Positions 1,706 through 23,250 of a DNA stretch of 43,495 nt are shown here, piece after piece. Made by a program: the position numbers and the translations under genes. Source of the DNA: a virus; UHGV virus genome UHGV-0404561, one strand, 5' to 3'. Numbering within the stretch: position 1 is the stretch's first letter; each line of letters begins with the position of its first letter. A model generated the notes under the pieces. That model did no database searches. It worked only from the letters and a program-made list of their open reading frames with translations, and was not told the origin of the DNA.

Positions 1706-1918
1706 TTATTTCTGCTCACCTCCCCTTTTCTCACAGCCTTCCAGCAGGGTCTCAATTCCGACACCGAAATATGTAGCGATTTTCTGAATATTTTTCACTG
1801 TCGGGCTTGACTTATCCCACCTTCCAATGGTTCCATTACCAATTCCACAGTCAGACTCTAATTTTGCAATCGAAATACCTTTCTGTTCGCATAGGGTTTC
1901 TATCTTATTTAGAATCAT
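1706..1918 (-). CDS. XRE-family HTH transcriptional regulator, Cro-like (70 aa)
   Basis: ISIAKLESDCGIGNGTIGRWDKSSPTVKNIQKIATYFGV is a canonical HTH_XRE. Divergent from the CI-like gene at 2132. Confidence 0.85.
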   Translation of the reverse strand: MILNKIETLCEQKGISIAKLESDCGIGNGTIGRWDKSSPTVKNIQKIATYFGVGIETLLEGCEKRGGEQK

Positions 1919-2529: not shown

Positions 2530-2967
2530 ATGATAGATGCAAAAAGGACAGCCGCAGAGCTATCAAATATGTATCATACAAATGACCCCATTGATCTCGC
2601 CGATCATCTGGGAGTATATACACAGGTTGGCCCTTTGGGTAAGATATACGGATGCTGTTTAACCATAGCGGGTGAACGCTTCATTTATATAAACAGCGAT
2701 CTGGATAAGTCTACACAAAAGATGGTTGCGGCCCATGAGCTGGGTCACGCCGTAATGCATCAGGAAGATTACTTCTTTTTTAACTGGATGCCGGACAGCT
2801 TGCACCGGAACCGTGCAGAGATCGAAGCTAACACTTTTGCTGTTGAGTTGCTTGTACCGGACAGTGTTGTGCTGGATCATCCAGGTTTTACTTTAGCGCA
2901 GCTATCCGCATTAACCGGATACGCAGAAAATTTCTTAAAATTCAAAAAAGTAGGGGGAGTATTATGA
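2530..2967 (+). CDS. ImmA/IrrE-family zinc metallopeptidase (anti-repressor protease partner of the XRE repressor)
   Basis: HEXXH motif AAHELGHAVMH. Size and position immediately downstream of the XRE repressor fit ImmR/ImmA modules. Confidence 0.85.
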   Translation: MIDAKRTAAELSNMYHTNDPIDLADHLGVYTQVGPLGKIYGCCLTIAGERFIYINSDLDKSTQKMVAAHELGHAVMHQEDYFFFNWMPDSLHRNRAEIEANTFAVELLVPDSVVLDHPGFTLAQLSALTGYAENFLKFKKVGGVL

Positions 2968-3413
2968 AGCTGAAATTGAATCCTGACGAAAAAACTATAT
3001 ATCAATGCAAGCCGCACTGGATCGCGTTTGTTGTGCCTTCCATTGTAGCGATTTTCTTTTTTCTTTTGTTTGCGACAGACTTAACAAATACAAGCAGCAG
3101 TGTAAGTTCCAATTTGACATTTTTTGTCATTTTTCTGTTATCGCTTGTCCCGATTATAAGGCTTAAAGCAATGATTTTGATCTTGACTGATAAAAGAGTC
3201 TTTGGAAGAACCGGAATCGTAAAGACAAAGTCCTTAACTATGCCGTTAAACCAAGTTAACACTGTAAATTTAACGCACAGTGTGCTGGGAAGGATTTTGA
3301 AGTACGGAACGATCCAAATCAGTGCTGTAACCGGAGTGTACCGTTTCCCTAAAATGCAAAATCCGGAAGAAATGCAAAATGCGATCATAAACAAAGTATC
3401 CAACAACAAATAA
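2964..3413 (+). CDS. Bacterial PH-domain (bPH_2 / YdbT-like) membrane protein
   Basis: N-terminal two TM helices, then ILTDKRVFGRTGIVKTKSLTMPLNQVNTV...YGTIQISAVTG, matching the bPH_2 pattern. Overlaps the ImmA stop (ATGA). Confidence 0.6.
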   Translation: MKLKLNPDEKTIYQCKPHWIAFVVPSIVAIFFFLLFATDLTNTSSSVSSNLTFFVIFLLSLVPIIRLKAMILILTDKRVFGRTGIVKTKSLTMPLNQVNTVNLTHSVLGRILKYGTIQISAVTGVYRFPKMQNPEEMQNAIINKVSNNK

Positions 3414-3574
3414 AAAAACGCCCGGCGCTACCAACACCAGACGTTTTAGGAGTGTGATATTTCTATCACGAAACCTACACCCGTATAATATCACATTTCC
3501 AGGCAGTCACGCAAGATAAACCATGTAAAAATCTGGTGGCTGTATTTTTTATACCCAAAAAGGAGTGTGCGACT

Positions 3575-4816
3575 ATGGCAAAAGCAAAAAAATTACCCTC
3601 AGGATCATGGCGTGTACTGGTGTTTGACCACTACGAGCCTGTCTTAAATCCAGACGGAACACCCGTCATGCAAAACGGAAAACCGAAACAAAAAAGAATA
3701 TATCAGTCCTTTACGGATGATGACCCGTCAACCAAAGGGCGCAAACGGGTCGAATTGGCAGCTGCACAATACATGGCAGAGAAAGATTCACGTGAAGCGG
3801 AAAGGCGCAACCAAGAGGCGAATATGACGCTTAGAGGGGCGGCAGAAAAATATATAGATCTGTGCAGAACATTGAAAAGGTCTCCATCCACCATAGAAGA
3901 CTATGAGTGCATCATGCGGAACGGGTTCCAGGATCTTTTTAGCATGCGCCTGTGTGACATATCAGAAGAGCTTCTACAAAATGCTATAGCCAAAGAAGCG
4001 CAGCGGCCTGTCAACGGGAAACCAGGCAAGACCCTTACAGCAAAGCGGCTGAAAAATGAATGGGGGTTTGTATCCTCTGTGCTGCACAAATACACAAACA
4101 TCCGCACCGACAATCTGCAATTACCTACGCCAACGCAAAGAATGGTTGACCTGCCAGATGCAAAAACAGTAATGGATATAGTACGCGGCACCGAAATGGA
4201 GCTGCCGGTGCTGCTTGCAATGTGGCTGTCGTTCACAGCATCGGAGATCCGCGGTCTTACAAAATCCAAATCAATTAATGGTGATTACATAACAATAAAG
4301 GAGACAGTCATTACCGTAAAAGGAAAAGCTGTAAGAAAAGAGACAGCGAAGAACAACACGAGAAAACGCAAACACAAAATACCGGCTTATATAAAAGGTC
4401 TGATCGACAAGGTTCCTGGCGATGTACTGGTGCCGATGACTGACGTTTCACTGCACCACCGCTGGAAACGCTTGCAAAAAAGCTACGGTATAAAAGACCC
4501 TATCACGTTTCACGACCTCAGACATCTTAATGCCTCAGTAATGGCCCTGTTGCAGATACCGGACAAATACGCTCAGGAGCGCGGTGGCTGGAAGTCGGAT
4601 GCTGTCATGAAAAAGGTCTACATGCAGACATTTTCGTCGGAGCGGCAAAAGGTTGATGATAAAATTGACAGCTACTTTGAGAGCATCGTGGGAACCGAAA
4701 AAAGCGAAAAAGAATCCATAAAAGAAGTTGTGAACCGGCTGAAAAAAGAAGATCCAGAGGGATGGAAAAAAGCCATTTTAGAAGCTATGCAACACGAAAT
4801 GCAACACGCGCAATAA
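3575..4816 (+). CDS. Phage tyrosine integrase with N-terminal AP2-like arm-binding domain
   Basis: N-terminus KLPSGSWRVLVFD matches the Int AP2-like arm-binding type. C-terminal FHDLRH...ERGGWKS...KKVYMQ provides the R-H-R-W-Y catalytic signature. ATG at 3575 with RBS AGGAG; the track ORF begins at an upstream GTG. Confidence 0.9.
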   Translation: MAKAKKLPSGSWRVLVFDHYEPVLNPDGTPVMQNGKPKQKRIYQSFTDDDPSTKGRKRVELAAAQYMAEKDSREAERRNQEANMTLRGAAEKYIDLCRTLKRSPSTIEDYECIMRNGFQDLFSMRLCDISEELLQNAIAKEAQRPVNGKPGKTLTAKRLKNEWGFVSSVLHKYTNIRTDNLQLPTPTQRMVDLPDAKTVMDIVRGTEMELPVLLAMWLSFTASEIRGLTKSKSINGDYITIKETVITVKGKAVRKETAKNNTRKRKHKIPAYIKGLIDKVPGDVLVPMTDVSLHHRWKRLQKSYGIKDPITFHDLRHLNASVMALLQIPDKYAQERGGWKSDAVMKKVYMQTFSSERQKVDDKIDSYFESIVGTEKSEKESIKEVVNRLKKEDPEGWKKAILEAMQHEMQHAQ

Positions 4817-5015
4817 AAAATGGCTTAAATAAGCCATTTTTCAAGAGCAGATAACGGGAATCGAACCCGTTAAAGTAAAAACTCACAAACCCGCGAAAAC
4901 ACTGAAATCTAGCATTTATGCGGGTTTGTGAGTTATAAATACTTACCACTTGCTCTATAAATATATCACAAATAATATATTTTTGCTTTCTATGCAACAC
5001 GAAATGCAACACGAC
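4786..5015. other. attP-like site: tRNA 3'-end fragment (T-arm + acceptor, about 4845-4870, minus sense) flanked by arm-type direct repeats ATGCAACACG (2 copies at 4793-4813 overlapping the int C-terminus, 2 copies at 4993-5014). A 14-bp inverted repeat lies at 4881-4894 / 4920-4933
   Basis: Minus-strand reading ACGGGTTCGATTCCCGT-TATCTGC-T gives a T-stem/loop plus 3' acceptor without the rest of a tRNA. The 23-bp direct repeat CTATGCAACACGAAATGCAACACG is present on both sides. The site is immediately downstream of int. Confidence 0.5.
4815..4841 (+). terminator. Rho-independent terminator after the integrase gene
   Basis: aaaaaatggcttaaataagccattttt gives a 9-bp stem AATGGCTTA/TAAGCCATT followed by a T-run. 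Confidence 0.7.
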
Positions 5016-5215
5016 TACTGCAATGGAAACTTTCATTAATTATAAGCAACATTCAAATAGCAAATACCGGAATCAGTAAAGGCTTCTCTTTTATTATTTC
5101 TGCCATAGCCCAGTCATTGACCTGTATTTCCAAAATACTCTCATTTTTCTCACACCAAGCTTCCAACCGGTTCAGCAAAATTTTCATTTATCACATCCTT
5201 TCTTTACAATAAAAT

Positions 5216-5485
5216 TTATTTAGACTCATATTTTAATCTGTCTAAATCTAAGGTAACATCAGTTTCTGCGATGCATTCTAATATAAATCTCAAAGCTTGA
5301 TCATGAGTTAATCCCTTTTCCTTCCCGAGCTTTTCAGTTATGGTTTTAACAATGGTACATAACATTGTCAATGTGTCCACAGTGCTTCCAGCACTAATTA
5401 CTTTTGCTTTATGTCTTTTTTTAACACACATTATAAGTCCCATTACATTCCTCCATACATTTGCTATTTTATTGAGCTTTCTCAA
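5216..5485 (-). CDS. Hypothetical small protein (89 aa or shorter), overlaps the upstream RHH gene by 17 nt
   Basis: ORF only, no motif recognised. Arranged like a downstream partner of the RHH gene. Confidence 0.4.
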   Translation of the reverse strand: MRKLNKIANVWRNVMGLIMCVKKRHKAKVISAGSTVDTLTMLCTIVKTITEKLGKEKGLTHDQALRFILECIAETDVTLDLDRLKYESK

Positions 5486-5651
5486 TAAAATTCTTTATTG
5501 CATCCGAAATAAAACTATTTATAGACGAATACCCTAACGCCTCTGCTTTTTGCTTAATCTGCTCTTTTTCTCCTTTTTTAACAACGTAATTAATCCGATC
5601 ATACACTTTCTGGTTGTATCTGTTCTTAACTTCTGCCGATGTTTTGCTCAT
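5469..5651 (-). CDS. Ribbon-helix-helix (Arc/CopG-like) DNA-binding protein, 60 aa
   Basis: KNRYNQKVYDRINYVVKKGEKEQIKQKAEALGYSSINSFISDAIKNFI has a beta-strand followed by two helices typical of RHH antitoxin/repressor proteins. Stop/start overlap with the 543-aa gene (ATGA). Confidence 0.6.
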   Translation of the reverse strand: MSKTSAEVKNRYNQKVYDRINYVVKKGEKEQIKQKAEALGYSSINSFISDAIKNFIEKAQ

Positions 5652-7279
5652 AACTCCTCCTTACTATTCTTAGCGGGTATACCACTGCTTTGTATATTGT
5701 CTTTCTTTGTTTTCATCACTCGTTCCCACTCTTCTGGATGTGTCTTTTGGAACCACTCCATAAAAGCCCCGTGTTTTTCTTTTTCTGCCCGCTCCCTAGC
5801 TTTTATAGCGTCCTGGATATCCTCATATAGTCCTAAATGGTATAAATACCCTTTAAACTGTATATAAGCCTCCCATTTTTGCCGCCTTTTATTAAACGAT
5901 ACACCGACATGCCCAGATGTATTGTTGCTCTGCTTTGTGTAAAGCAATGAATTAATTCGTGTACCGTCCACCTGGTCGGTGATCGCGTTCGGGGTAAATC
6001 TACTAAATTCACACCCGCAAGACTTTGTTGTCCCGTAAGTAAGGCTGCCGCCTCTAACCGTTGTAATCTTCCCGCAATCGCAACGGCATTTCCACATTGA
6101 ACACTTTTGTTCTTCGTCCACCCCTGCATATGCTATAACCGTTAGCTTTCCAAAGCGTTTTCCTGTCAAATCCAAACGCTTTATACAGCCGCAGGATTTA
6201 GTATTTCCACTGATCAATGAGTCCAAACGGTACTCTTTAACCGTCCCGCAGTCACATTTTGCTATAACCCTTTGCAACTCTCGGGGTTTTCTTGGGCAAA
6301 ACTCGGTTATTGTGAGCTTACCGAATTTCTGCCCTACATACGGAGCACTTGGAGCAGGATCTTGATTTTTTTGTGCTACAAAACTTTTTCCGTCCTCATA
6401 TCGCTGATAAAGTAGATCCACCAAATTAGCTAACTCTTCCCCGCGTAGTTTATTACGTAAATCCATTGGAATTAACTCATAATTAGTATTAAAAACTTCA
6501 TCTTTTTTTCCAATCCTGCTTATTTTTTTTACCAGATTGCGTTTGCTAAATTTTAACGGTTCTTTAATGTCAAAAGTATCGCATATTCTTTTTATTTGTT
6601 CATCGTTTAATAGGCGCGTTCCTTGCTCAGCTAACACGATATGCCAACGGTTCAATCCAGCCTGCTTTGCAAATTCCTTTTGTGTGAGCCCTACTCCTTC
6701 GCGTAGCTCTTTTAGCTTTTCTCCCGCTTCAATCGCTCCGTCGTCGTTTAATGGTATAGTCGGACCCCCACTTTCAAACATCTCTCCAGTTCCTTCTATC
6801 AACCAATCTATTCGCACATTAAAAATATCGCATATGTTAGCAATTTCGCCTTCTTTTAATTGCTTTTTCCCAGTTTCAATCCACGATACATAATATATCT
6901 GGATTCCCAATTTGCTAGCCATTTCTGCTTGGCTTAATCCAAGCTTTTTCCGCAATATTTTTAGTCTTTTTTTGATATTCCCATTTCTTATACTTTCATT
7001 TTTGCAAACAACGGAACGTTTTGGATCATTGACTTCATAAGGCTTTGGAACGCTGTTATTCTCTTCATCATCTTTATCAAACATATTTCCAACGCCTGTA
7101 GTCAACCACCGTTTGCTTATACCATGAATATTGCAAATTTTATCTATAAGTTTATCAGATGGGTTATTATAACCCATCTCTATAAAATTTACATAGCTCA
7201 TTGAAATGCCGACAGACTCGGAAAATTTCTTCTGCGACAAGTGTAACGCTTTTCGCATCTCCTTGAATCGATATCTCAT
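5648..7279 (-). CDS. Multi-domain DNA-binding protein (543 aa): three tandem XRE-type HTH domains, two zinc-ribbon repeats (KFGKLT...CxCxCG...TKSCGC) and a C-terminal AP2 domain
   Basis: HTH_XRE-like segments at about aa 5-60, 105-160 and 190-245. Repeats GQKFGKLTITEF...CDCGTVKEYRLDSLISGNTKSCGC and GKRFGKLTVIAY...CDCGKITTVRGGSLTYGTTKSCGC. AP2-like GHVGVSFNKRRQKWEAYIQFKGYLYHLGLYEDIQDAIKARE. Confidence 0.8.
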   Translation of the reverse strand: MRYRFKEMRKALHLSQKKFSESVGISMSYVNFIEMGYNNPSDKLIDKICNIHGISKRWLTTGVGNMFDKDDEENNSVPKPYEVNDPKRSVVCKNESIRNGNIKKRLKILRKKLGLSQAEMASKLGIQIYYVSWIETGKKQLKEGEIANICDIFNVRIDWLIEGTGEMFESGGPTIPLNDDGAIEAGEKLKELREGVGLTQKEFAKQAGLNRWHIVLAEQGTRLLNDEQIKRICDTFDIKEPLKFSKRNLVKKISRIGKKDEVFNTNYELIPMDLRNKLRGEELANLVDLLYQRYEDGKSFVAQKNQDPAPSAPYVGQKFGKLTITEFCPRKPRELQRVIAKCDCGTVKEYRLDSLISGNTKSCGCIKRLDLTGKRFGKLTVIAYAGVDEEQKCSMWKCRCDCGKITTVRGGSLTYGTTKSCGCEFSRFTPNAITDQVDGTRINSLLYTKQSNNTSGHVGVSFNKRRQKWEAYIQFKGYLYHLGLYEDIQDAIKARERAEKEKHGAFMEWFQKTHPEEWERVMKTKKDNIQSSGIPAKNSKEEL

Positions 7280-7633: not shown

Positions 7634-8413
7634 CTATTTGGCAATGCCTGGATAATGAAGGACCCCGTCCTGATCAGGAGTAAGTACTACTGGTTCAGTT
7701 GCCATGCGACCGTCCTGATTCAGGTAGTACCACTTGCCATTGATTGTCTGTAAGCCCTTTAGCATGGCGCCGTCGGAGCCGAGATAGTACCAAGACCCTT
7801 TGTATTGATACCAGATATCATGAACCATCATGCCGGCACCGTCGAACCAGTACCAGAGTTCTCCGTCTTTGTACCAGTCATTGGAAACATACTTCCCAGA
7901 TCCGTCTTTTAAATAGAAGCGCCAACCGCCATTTTCCTGCTGCCAGCCTTCTATGATCTTCGGCTTTTCCACGGCTGACCAGGTTTTCATAAACTCTTCC
8001 GGAGTTTTATAGAGCTTTTTAATCCCACTGGTACCACTTCCCCAGTCTGGAAGTTGAAAATGTGGTTTATCTACAATACTCTTCCAGTTTCCACCCCATT
8101 CCAAGCCGATGGATGTGCCGATCACGCCAACCTTGCTAAAAAATCCATCTGAATCATAATAGGCGCCGCGGCCATCTGCACGATAAATGTCGAAGGCTGT
8201 ACCCCACTGGTGATAACTGCTGTAACTGCTGCCTGGGGCATTGGTCACGATATTTCCCGGTTTTGTACGCCCCTGAGCATATAAATCATCTTGCTCTGCT
8301 TTTGTCCTGAGAGTTTCCCCGATTTTGATCTGCAAGCCTTTGGCGGCACACTTGGAAATCAATTCTGTTGCCAGCTTCTGTAAACGTGGATGGCATAAAG
8401 TAATATCTCTCAT
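7634..8413 (-). CDS. Endolysin: N-terminal peptidase M15 (VanY / L-Ala-D-Glu peptidase-like) domain plus C-terminal choline-binding-type cell-wall-binding repeats
   Basis: SSYHQWGTAFDI and GGNW...DKPHFQ motifs of M15 peptidases. C-terminal GW/YY repeats (GGWRFYLKDGSGKY, GELWYWFDGAGMM, GSWYYLGSDGAM, GKWYYLNQDGRM). ATG at 8413 with RBS; the track ORF starts at an upstream GTG at 8434. Confidence 0.9.
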   Translation of the reverse strand: MRDITLCHPRLQKLATELISKCAAKGLQIKIGETLRTKAEQDDLYAQGRTKPGNIVTNAPGSSYSSYHQWGTAFDIYRADGRGAYYDSDGFFSKVGVIGTSIGLEWGGNWKSIVDKPHFQLPDWGSGTSGIKKLYKTPEEFMKTWSAVEKPKIIEGWQQENGGWRFYLKDGSGKYVSNDWYKDGELWYWFDGAGMMVHDIWYQYKGSWYYLGSDGAMLKGLQTINGKWYYLNQDGRMATEPVVLTPDQDGVLHYPGIAK

Positions 8414-8443
8414 AATTTCGCCTTTCTTTTGCACCGGTGAAAC

Positions 8444-22952: not shown

Positions 22953-23028
22953 AGTATCCTCCTGGCCGTGTTTATTGACCTGCCGCCGCAGGTAATGGAT
23001 TAAGCCCGATAGACCACGGGCGGGGTAA

Positions 23029-23100
23029 CTCCGGCAGCCGGATTCGAACCAGCGCTATGAGAGTCAAAGTCTCATGCCTTAACCGCTTGGCAATGCCGAA
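23029..23100 (-). tRNA. tRNA-Gln (anticodon TTG)
   Basis: Manual fold: acceptor TTCGGCA/TGCCGGA (U1-A72), 3-bp D stem GCC/GGC, anticodon stem TGAGA/TCTCA with loop CTTTGAC, T-loop GGTTCGAATCC. Similar to Bacillus tRNA-Gln. No encoded CCA. Confidence 0.75.
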
Positions 23101-23172
23101 AGCTGATAGCCGGACTTGAACCGACAACATATTGATTACAAGTCAATTGTTCTTCCATTGAACTATACCAGC
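23101..23172 (-). tRNA. tRNA-Thr (anticodon TGT)
   Basis: Manual fold: acceptor GCTGGTA/TATCAGC, D arm GTTCAATGGAAGAAC, anticodon stem ATTGA/TCAAT with loop CTTGTAA, T arm GTCGGTTCAAGTCCGGC. Confidence 0.75.
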
Positions 23173-23176
23173 AAAA

Positions 23177-23250
23177 TGGACCGCCAGGGACTTGAACCCC
23201 GGACCACCCGGTTATGAGCCGGGCGCTCTGACCAGCTGAGCTAGCGGTCC
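23177..23250 (-). tRNA. tRNA-Met (anticodon CAT; elongator-type, tRNA-Ile2 not excluded)
   Basis: Manual fold: acceptor GGACCGC/GCGGTCC with G1-C72 paired (not initiator), anticodon stem CCCGG/CCGGG with loop CTCATAA, T-loop GGGGTTCAAGTCCC. Confidence 0.75.

Follow-up and report, generated by a model that had tools for sequence, protein, structure and literature searches.

The 43,495-base viral genome UHGV-0404561, referred to here in its full length as the window, carries at positions 4785-5013 what is very probably the functional, unsplit phage attachment site (attP) of a temperate siphovirus-like phage, with four copies of a 10-bp unit, ATGCAACACG, acting as arm-type sites of the adjacent tyrosine integrase (Int). 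We recovered attP, the bacterial attachment site (attB) and both prophage junctions for the same phage, which identifies the site as an attP. The host is an uncultured Lachnospiraceae bacterium, whose tRNA-Gly(CCC) gene is the target, recombination taking place at the 3' end of that gene. A preliminary description, made from the letters of the DNA alone, had proposed an unsplit attP-like site here, and the partner sites that such a proposal calls for are present in public assemblies. Read from the int side, the site consists of the tail of int with one pair of repeats, a hairpin, a tRNA fragment, a second hairpin and the other pair of repeats, as follows.

3575-4816, plus strand: int, an open reading frame (ORF) for a tyrosine integrase of 413 amino acids, matching PF00589 with an E value of 1.2e-9; stop codon TAA at 4814-4816
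4787-4796 and 4799-4808, plus strand: int-proximal arm, two ATGCAACACG units, ~60-70 bp from the core centre
4816-4841, no strand assigned: hairpin of an A-run, a 12-bp stem and a T-run; an inverted repeat, terminator-like on both strands
4846-4869, minus strand: common core (O) of 24 bp, with the same sequence as the tRNA-Gly(CCC) 3' end, bounded by the points at which identity ends in all four sites
4852-4872, no strand assigned: 7-7-7 arrangement TAACGGG / AATCGAA / CCCGTTA, a perfect inverted repeat around the T-loop; candidate core-type Int sites
4880-4934, minus strand: long hairpin with a U-rich tail; an inverted repeat folding at -33.1 kcal/mol, z -8.2, on the minus strand
4992-5001 and 5004-5013, plus strand: int-distal arm, two ATGCAACACG units, ~130-150 bp from the core centre

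The partner sites came from metagenome contigs recovered by exact-protein look-ups. Unsplit sites identical to that of the window are present in contigs L248, L250-L252, L254, L256, L229 and L232. At the int-side junction (L249 and L253, with an Int 100% identical to the window's), int leads into the proximal repeats, then the hairpin, the core and a complete tRNA-Gly(CCC), beyond which lie the host genes for an AI-2E transporter, DUF3837 and pheT. At the far junction (L245, L231 and L234), the right-hand genes of the window, the distal repeats and the long hairpin are all unchanged, so that both the distal arm and this hairpin remain with the prophage, and past the core there is host DNA with SIMPL and xanthine/uracil permease genes. 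One int-side contig, L249, and one far-junction contig, L245, come from the same sample. Several independent samples yielded junction contigs, which makes chimeric assembly an unlikely source of them. The empty attB (L258-L265) has the order pheS-pheT-DUF3837-AI-2E-tRNA-Gly-...-SIMPL, and the proteins flanking the site in the host carry the metagenome-assembled genome (MAG) names 'Clostridium sp.' and 'Enterocloster sp.' in NCBI MAG records. A comparison of 90 nt on each side of the core gave the following identities.

attP-left against int-junction-left: 90/90 identical
attP-right against far-junction-right: 90/90 identical
attB-right against int-junction-right: 90/90 identical
attB-left against far-junction-left: 87/90 identical
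attP-left against attB-left: 20/90 identical
attP-right against attB-right: 27/90 identical

Reciprocal exchange therefore occurs within the 24-bp common core at 4846-4869, with the sequence AGCAGATAACGGGAATCGAACCCG, because it is there that the flanks swap among the four sites. The tRNA-Gly(CCC) at the int-side junction, called complete by ARAGORN, has the same sequence as the gene of the empty site; integration regenerates the gene unchanged. The preliminary description had named a split of this region into left and right prophage junctions in the source assembly as grounds for refuting its proposal. Such split copies do exist in other samples, and they confirm the use of the site rather than refute it. 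Five Logan contigs with a 99% identical Int all end 59 nt past the int stop codon, just beyond the core's right edge, where their final bases already match the tRNA body and no longer the phage. An assembly graph containing both forms would be expected to break at this position.

The window is one circular permutation of a closed, complete phage genome of ~43.5 kb, and not a prophage, because its ends are contiguous in independent contigs: in L248 and L252 its last 426-480 nt run straight into its first bases, with 100% and >99% identity. Gene content is phage throughout, with phage genes on both sides of the site, in agreement with the earlier view that an unsplit attP points to a free or circular form. 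We weighed the alternative that the unsplit site reflects a tandem prophage dimer or an assembly artefact instead of an excised or replicating phage, since assembly cannot separate a circle, a concatemer, terminally redundant virion DNA and a head-to-tail prophage dimer, all of which the closed contig fits, and since the window itself has no terminal overlap. Nevertheless, the unsplit attP and the end-to-start joint recur in many independent assemblies, in contigs of 41-44 kb, and an artefact would not recur across assemblers and samples. Contigs also break at the core in samples that hold the junctions as well, as a mixture of forms predicts. We thus consider a dimer or an artefact very improbable.

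The core is the part of the site that the preliminary description had recognised as a tRNA 3' fragment lacking the D and anticodon arms, and the exchange of flanks at the 24 nt that match the 3' end of tRNA-Gly(CCC) bears this out. The minus strand of 4846-4870 reads ACGGGTTCGATTCCCGT TATCTGC T and contains the T-arm, the 3' acceptor strand and the discriminator without a D or an anticodon arm; the 24-bp core itself holds 4 bp of the 5' strand of the T-stem, the T-loop, the 3' strand of the T-stem, the 3' strand of the acceptor stem and the discriminator. ARAGORN called no tRNA at this fragment. The 24-mer CGGGTTCGATTCCCGTTATCTGCT is present in at least 120 species-representative genomes, in each of them as the 3' end of tRNA-Gly(CCC), so that the suggested check for bacterial tRNA genes with a matching 3' end had a positive outcome. 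Almost all of these genomes are Lachnospiraceae, including Blautia, Dorea, Acetatifactor, Hungatella and Enterocloster. A tblastn search with Int against 120 of the tRNA-Gly loci gave only four Int-like matches, all of at most 32% identity, and the species-representative genomes are therefore without this phage.

Identity with the target starts 4 bp 5' of the T-loop, and the boundary is the same in relatives at tRNA-Gly(GCC) and tRNA-Ala(GGC); it begins in the T-stem and not in the anticodon loop, which places the site in the T-region class of integration into tRNA genes (tDNAs). In attB the counterpart of the perfect 7-7-7 arrangement is TAACGGG-AATCGAA-CCCGCCT, with CCCGCCT as its right half. 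The transfer-messenger RNA (tmRNA) gene ssrA was also considered as a target. At a permissive threshold, an Rfam search of 4600-5200 matched the T-arm alone to the 3' end of the tmRNA model, with 14.8 bits against a gathering threshold of 47. This candidate was dropped because the acceptor strand TATCTGC cannot pair with the 5' end of tmRNA and because the genome scan pointed to tRNA-Gly(CCC). In one relative with a 99% identical Int (L137, IMGVR_UViG_3300045988_047562), the core has a T-to-C change at the position equivalent to 4852 of the window (AGCAGACAACGGG), which may be a polymorphism or an adaptation to a variant of the host tRNA.

Several further observations concern the host locus. 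The host ssrA gene lies ~1.1 kb from tRNA-Gly(CCC) (L234, 3600-5100; L258, 5300-7300), and the gap between them contains a fragment of a phage lysozyme pseudogene, a ATGCAACACG/ATGCAATACG pair and a terminator abutting the 3' end of the tmRNA, together with a lone ATGCAACACG near the tRNA. This gap looks like a relic of a related element integrated at ssrA, and on account of this apparent relic the ssrA/tRNA-Gly locus would be an integration hotspot. In L263, a different integrase of 348 amino acids sits in the same region. Other short tandem motifs, TGATTACC, TTTAGTTCCA and AGTATCA, lie immediately 3' of tRNA-Gly(CCC) in other Lachnospiraceae genomes (L023, L030 and L095; L032, L059 and L133; and L016, L018, L021 and L048). 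They are possibly arm sites of unrelated integrases that share this attB; tblastn with the present Int at these loci gave nothing.

On both sides of the core lie the repeats. An exact 24-nt direct repeat, CTATGCAACACGAAATGCAACACG, occupies 4785-4808 and 4990-5013; the preliminary description was right about the direct repeat and its two units on each side, and one nucleotide short in giving its length as 23. Within each copy the ATGCAACACG units are spaced 12 bp apart, and all four units are in direct orientation. Exact ATGCAACACG occurs at these four places only in the window, where one-mismatch copies elsewhere number 4 against a mean of 2.99 in shuffles, and by our own arithmetic ~3e-6 exact 24-mer repeats would be expected by chance in 43.5 kb. 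As described earlier, two of the units lie inside the C-terminal codons of int: the proximal copy, 4785-4808, falls in its last codons and is translated as the end of Int, AMQHEMQHAQ followed by the stop. A literature search for ATGCAACACG returned only unrelated primer sequences, and a distant blastn search of 3500-5300 against the INPHARED phage collection found no relative, with a single match of 83 nt. The possibility that the 24-nt repeat is the target-site duplication of a 205-bp insertion into int was ruled out by comparative data.

These comparative data strongly support the assignment of the ATGCAACACG units as arm-type integrase sites, which differ in sequence from the core and are present as exact copies, two on each arm. 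In phages with 70-78% Int identity the whole layout of the site is kept, and the surrounding non-coding DNA has diverged. A profile scan of IMG/VR gave 80 loci with Int identities of 40-99%, nearly all of which have the ATGCAACACG pair at the 3' end of int. Among loci with the proximal pair and at least 300 nt of downstream sequence, 20 without a complete tRNA had the distal pair, as against 0 with one; in ten loci int is directly followed by a complete tRNA or tmRNA, and none of these has the distal pair. Matched attP and junction loci were found for tRNA-Gly(GCC) (L139 against L140 and L142) and for tRNA-Ala(GGC) (L145 against L146). Altogether the family uses at least seven targets: tRNA-Gly(CCC), Gly(GCC), Ala(GGC), Trp(CCA), Pro(CGG), Ser(CGA) and the tmRNA gene ssrA. 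Within a single phage, variant units agree between the arms: L156 has ATACAACACG in all four places, and the second unit of either arm in L192 reads ATGCTACACG. In comparison with contigs of 99% Int identity (L136-L138), similarity to the window is lost within a few bases to the right of 5013 (about 5014-5040), so that the distal pair marks the edge of the attachment module. We note that the divergence from L136-L138 amounts to a mosaic joint exactly at this edge. AT-rich TATAAATA repeats at 4935-4975 were spotted by eye.

The position of two units in the coding sequence raises the alternative that the conserved element is the C-terminal peptide MQHEMQH, the downstream DNA copy being a by-product such as a spare int 3' end or a duplication scar. 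Indeed, conservation across 40 homologues is 90% or more at M405, Q406, H407, Q410 and H411, and the preceding ~35 residues are variable. However, integration leaves int uncut, and no spare 3' end is therefore needed. Synonymous positions are also fixed: Gln is encoded by CAA in 57/57 cases inside the motif against 109/377 elsewhere in the same 29 genes, and His by CAC in 50/57 against 114/254, a test whose direction is unambiguous but which counts related genes as independent and so overstates its P values, a point that counts against leaning on it for the arm sites. Moreover, the DNA motif persists where the peptide does not. It is kept in another reading frame in L192 (peptide ICNTKCYT), on the opposite strand inside an ORF in L212 (SVLHSVLH), and after the stop codon in L159 and L202, in which the whole attachment module is inverted relative to int. 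The distal pair, which is non-coding, is conserved as well, and is lost exactly in the integrated junctions. Conservation of the peptide for its own sake is thus very improbable. The data are consistent with a constraint that acts on the DNA motif and not on the peptide, and the conserved MQHEMQH tail of this integrase family would follow from the location of two ATGCAACACG units in the last codons of int.

The integrase itself is a tyrosine recombinase by both its PF00589 match and its catalytic signature, with HDLRH at 313-317, W339 and Y349 invariant in 40 homologues. An AlphaFold model with a mean predicted local distance difference test (pLDDT) score of 79.5 comprises an N-terminal unit, a helical core-binding domain and a catalytic domain. 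Foldseek matched it to the Tn1549 Int (6en0, E 2e-7; 6emy) and to lambda Int, with E values of 2e-7 to 1e-6, including full-length lambda Int chains over ~375 aligned columns. The N-terminal unit has strands at 12-22 and 39-48 and a long helix from residue 53 in the model (pLDDT 83-92), and when modelled alone it scored a pLDDT of 80.6; a small DNA-binding-type domain of beta-sheet plus helix is plausible from these models. It is also the best-kept part of a distant relative with the same repeats. This relative, L105, is an integrated element in a Lachnospiraceae MAG with ATGCAACACG/ATACAACACG beside tRNA-Gly(CCC); its Int is 32% identical overall and keeps the N-terminus MAKAKKLPSGS.R; MAKAKKLPSGSYR...YRSFT...AELQAAQY.

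A number of results count against the reading of the site as an attP with Int-bound arms. A Foldseek search of the N-domain model against the PDB gave a best E value of 0.36, to unrelated folds; a Pfam search for the N-domain at E values up to 10 gave an unrelated weak match only; a profile of 16 Int N-termini found nothing relevant among PDB sequences. We identified no excisionase gene in the window. Thirteen loci have the proximal pair and neither the distal pair nor a full tRNA within 450 nt. In L212 (46% Int identity, 2520-2810), the repeat pairs are inverted relative to the tRNA fragment, with their distances to the fragment swapped and its sense unchanged, an arrangement that the simple model does not predict. 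Finally, the protein that binds ATGCAACACG and the positions of the strand cuts are here inferred from sequence. The designation of the N-terminus as AP2-like in the preliminary description found no support in Pfam, NCBIfam (in which a scan of the whole Int matched residues 92-323 only, outside the N-domain), the PDB profile search or Foldseek, and since the N-domain is without a match in sequence or fold searches we do not retain this label; the arm role that the same description gave to the repeats is, by contrast, strongly supported by the comparison of loci.

It is in this light that a related alternative has to be considered, namely that the site is an attP and that ATGCAACACG is bound by a protein other than the N-domain of Int, candidates being excisionases or recombination directionality factors, repressors and host factors. 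In its favour are the lack of a match between the Int N-domain and any known arm-binding family and the presence of an HTH_17 excisionase-like gene in the relatives L001 and L007. Against this, a pair of sites on each arm, with the two arms unequally far from the core, is the classic arm-type layout (PMC3203893). The motif, furthermore, goes with the Int family in different phage backbones and at no fewer than seven targets, and it still accompanies the conserved Int N-terminus where overall identity is 32%. Known sites of directionality factors are normally confined to one arm, as in the case of lambda Xis. Binding by another protein is thus improbable in our judgement, and we retain Int as the likely ligand of the four units.

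The two hairpins flank the core. The preliminary description had placed an int terminator ahead of the tRNA fragment, and the hairpin at 4816-4841 is real, with folding energies of -11.4 kcal/mol (z -4.1) on the plus strand and -13.8 kcal/mol (z -5.8) on the minus strand and an equivalent hairpin at the same place in relatives. The stem of the longer hairpin at 4880-4934 shows three compensatory pair changes in comparison with the phages of 70% Int identity, with its loop conserved. It is probably the terminator of the leftward lysis/moron transcript. We note that the conserved loop reads ACACTG.A.T.TAGCATTTAT; this conservation gives a hint of some role besides plain termination, such as the binding of a protein. 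Neither hairpin was picked up by a simple terminator scan, whose rules for loops and T-runs they do not fit, and folding energies were used instead.

Taken together, these observations give the following mechanism, shown for the exchange and its products and proposed for the rest. Recombination between the phage and the host tRNA-Gly(CCC) gene takes place at the gene's 3' end, inside the 24-bp core. On integration the body of the host tRNA is joined to the tRNA 3' end carried by the phage, with the terminator hairpin, the proximal pair and int beyond it, giving a rebuilt, unchanged tRNA-Gly(CCC) with a phage-supplied terminator, and the displaced host tRNA 3' fragment becomes joined to the long hairpin and the distal pair at the other end of the prophage. 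Strand exchange may take place in the 7-bp T-loop AATCGAA at 4859-4865, with the core-binding and catalytic domains of Int on the inverted T-stem repeats TAACGGG and CCCGTTA; a 7-bp overlap between inverted core-type sites is the standard geometry of tyrosine recombinases. We place the exchange at the T-loop and not further 3' because identity ends four bases past the T-loop in three targets. The four ATGCAACACG units would be the binding sites of Int's own small N-terminal domain; Int, by bridging arm and core, would form a lambda-like intasome of ~230 bp. The hairpin at 4816-4841 would terminate int on the plus strand and, after integration, the rebuilt tRNA-Gly on the minus strand, and that at 4880-4934 would stop the leftward lysis/moron transcript ahead of the site.

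Elsewhere in the window, the following genes of a temperate phage were located.

1706-1918, minus strand: cro-like gene
2132-2518: cI-like gene
2530-2967: ImmA-like M78 peptidase gene
2964-3413: bPH-domain gene
7634-8434, minus strand: endolysin gene
41520-42149, minus strand: ERF gene
42168-42659, minus strand: Gp157 gene

Between the endolysin gene and attP, 5648-7279 on the minus strand encodes a protein of 543 amino acids with three HTH_3 domains, which has 278 amino acids in L228 and 529-544 in other close relatives and is absent in L235; lying at the end of the prophage, it has the look of a moron or a regulator. Mid-genome, at 23028-23250 on the minus strand, three tRNA genes stand side by side (Gln-TTG, Thr-TGT and Met-CAT); they are phage-encoded and unrelated to the attachment site. 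At 3-120 of the window, where the contig was opened, there is a 27-bp tandem repeat of 4.4 copies with the unit CACATCTCGCCGACCTGTGAGCTGCCA, inside a minus-strand ORF that spans the joint between the end and the start. Its copy number varies between assemblies, the window and L248 having far fewer copies than L249 and L255.

The results provide a fully specified set of attP, attB and Int for an abundant uncultured lineage of gut Lachnospiraceae, comprising the core, a candidate overlap and four putative arm sites, with this Int seen in both the excised and the integrated states in metagenomes of the human-gut type. Such sets are raw material for site-specific integration vectors and for precise calls of prophage boundaries. 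The family illustrates the modularity of recombinases, with one arm motif and N-terminus combined with many tRNA targets, and it offers an example of a putative DNA-binding site that dictates a conserved protein tail. A wider proposal is that of a large, undescribed family of Lachnospiraceae and Clostridia integrases with a fixed arm module, a changeable core specificity and a functional overlap with the int tail, in which the fixed module may be the N-terminus MAKAKKLPSGSWR with the four ATGCAACACG sites. On this view the overlap may be more than compaction, for example if Int bound in the tail fed back on int expression or coupled it to intasome assembly. We put the whole proposal forward tentatively, as rather unlikely; if true, the family would be a natural toolkit of integrases with swappable targets for gut Clostridia that are hard to engineer. 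Our current understanding of site-specific recombination is left unchanged.

By comparison with known systems, the site resembles lambda attP in its length of ~230 bp with a short common core shared with attB, in its tandem ~10-bp repeats that are unrelated to the core and stand on both arms at unequal distances, in the match of the Int catalytic fold to lambda Int and in the position of int directly beside the site. It differs in that the core is the 3' end of a tRNA gene, that of lambda being intergenic, in that its four units are all direct and unrelated in sequence to the lambda arm sites, and in that its N-domain has no detectable sequence or fold match. In contrast to lambda attP, no sites for host factors or Xis were identified, although no dedicated test of accessory-factor sites was made.

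The core-binding and catalytic domains have their best structural match in the integrases of Tn916 and Tn1549, elements of Firmicutes (6en0 and 6emy). The N-domain of Tn916 Int binds direct repeats in the transposon arms, and the Tn916/Tn1549 enzymes accept overlap ('coupling') sequences that are not identical and use many AT-rich insertion sites. The present phage, by contrast, uses a single tRNA site with a 24-bp identity block, and structural identity is only ~16%. The class of tDNA integration at the T-loop or the T/acceptor junction was reportedly defined by Williams in 2002. Islander recognises the T-loop and the T/acceptor junction as crossover subsites and pools them as hard to separate (PMC4383910). 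As in such T-region elements (PMC4383910), the phage brings a 3' tDNA fragment by which the target gene is regenerated and that of the host displaced, with an identity block from the T-stem to the tRNA's 3' end and nothing essential that differs.

Mycobacteriophage sites share the overall plan. In Cluster K1 (CrimD and relatives), L5 and Giles, two pairs of putative arm repeats of ~11 bp flank a core that matches the T-stem region of a tmRNA or tRNA gene, and mycobacteriophage attP has a stem-loop terminator between the core and one repeat pair; the repeat pairs of L5 and Giles are in direct orientation, and variation of arm sites has been linked to N-terminal Int residues (PMC3203893). The present site shares with these the two repeat pairs, the core in the T-stem region and the terminator between core and pair. 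The K1 attP lies 5' of int and its pairs are inverted to each other, whereas here the site is 3' of int, the pairs are direct and one pair lies within the coding sequence of int; the host belongs to another phylum, and the repeats have another sequence. In conclusion, the site is an attP, very probably that of a heterobivalent (lambda-type) tyrosine integrase and of the T-loop class, an ordinary and already known kind, and it departs from known examples in details, namely the repeat sequence, the host lineage, the placement 3' of int with a coding overlap and the breadth of targets served by one arm motif.

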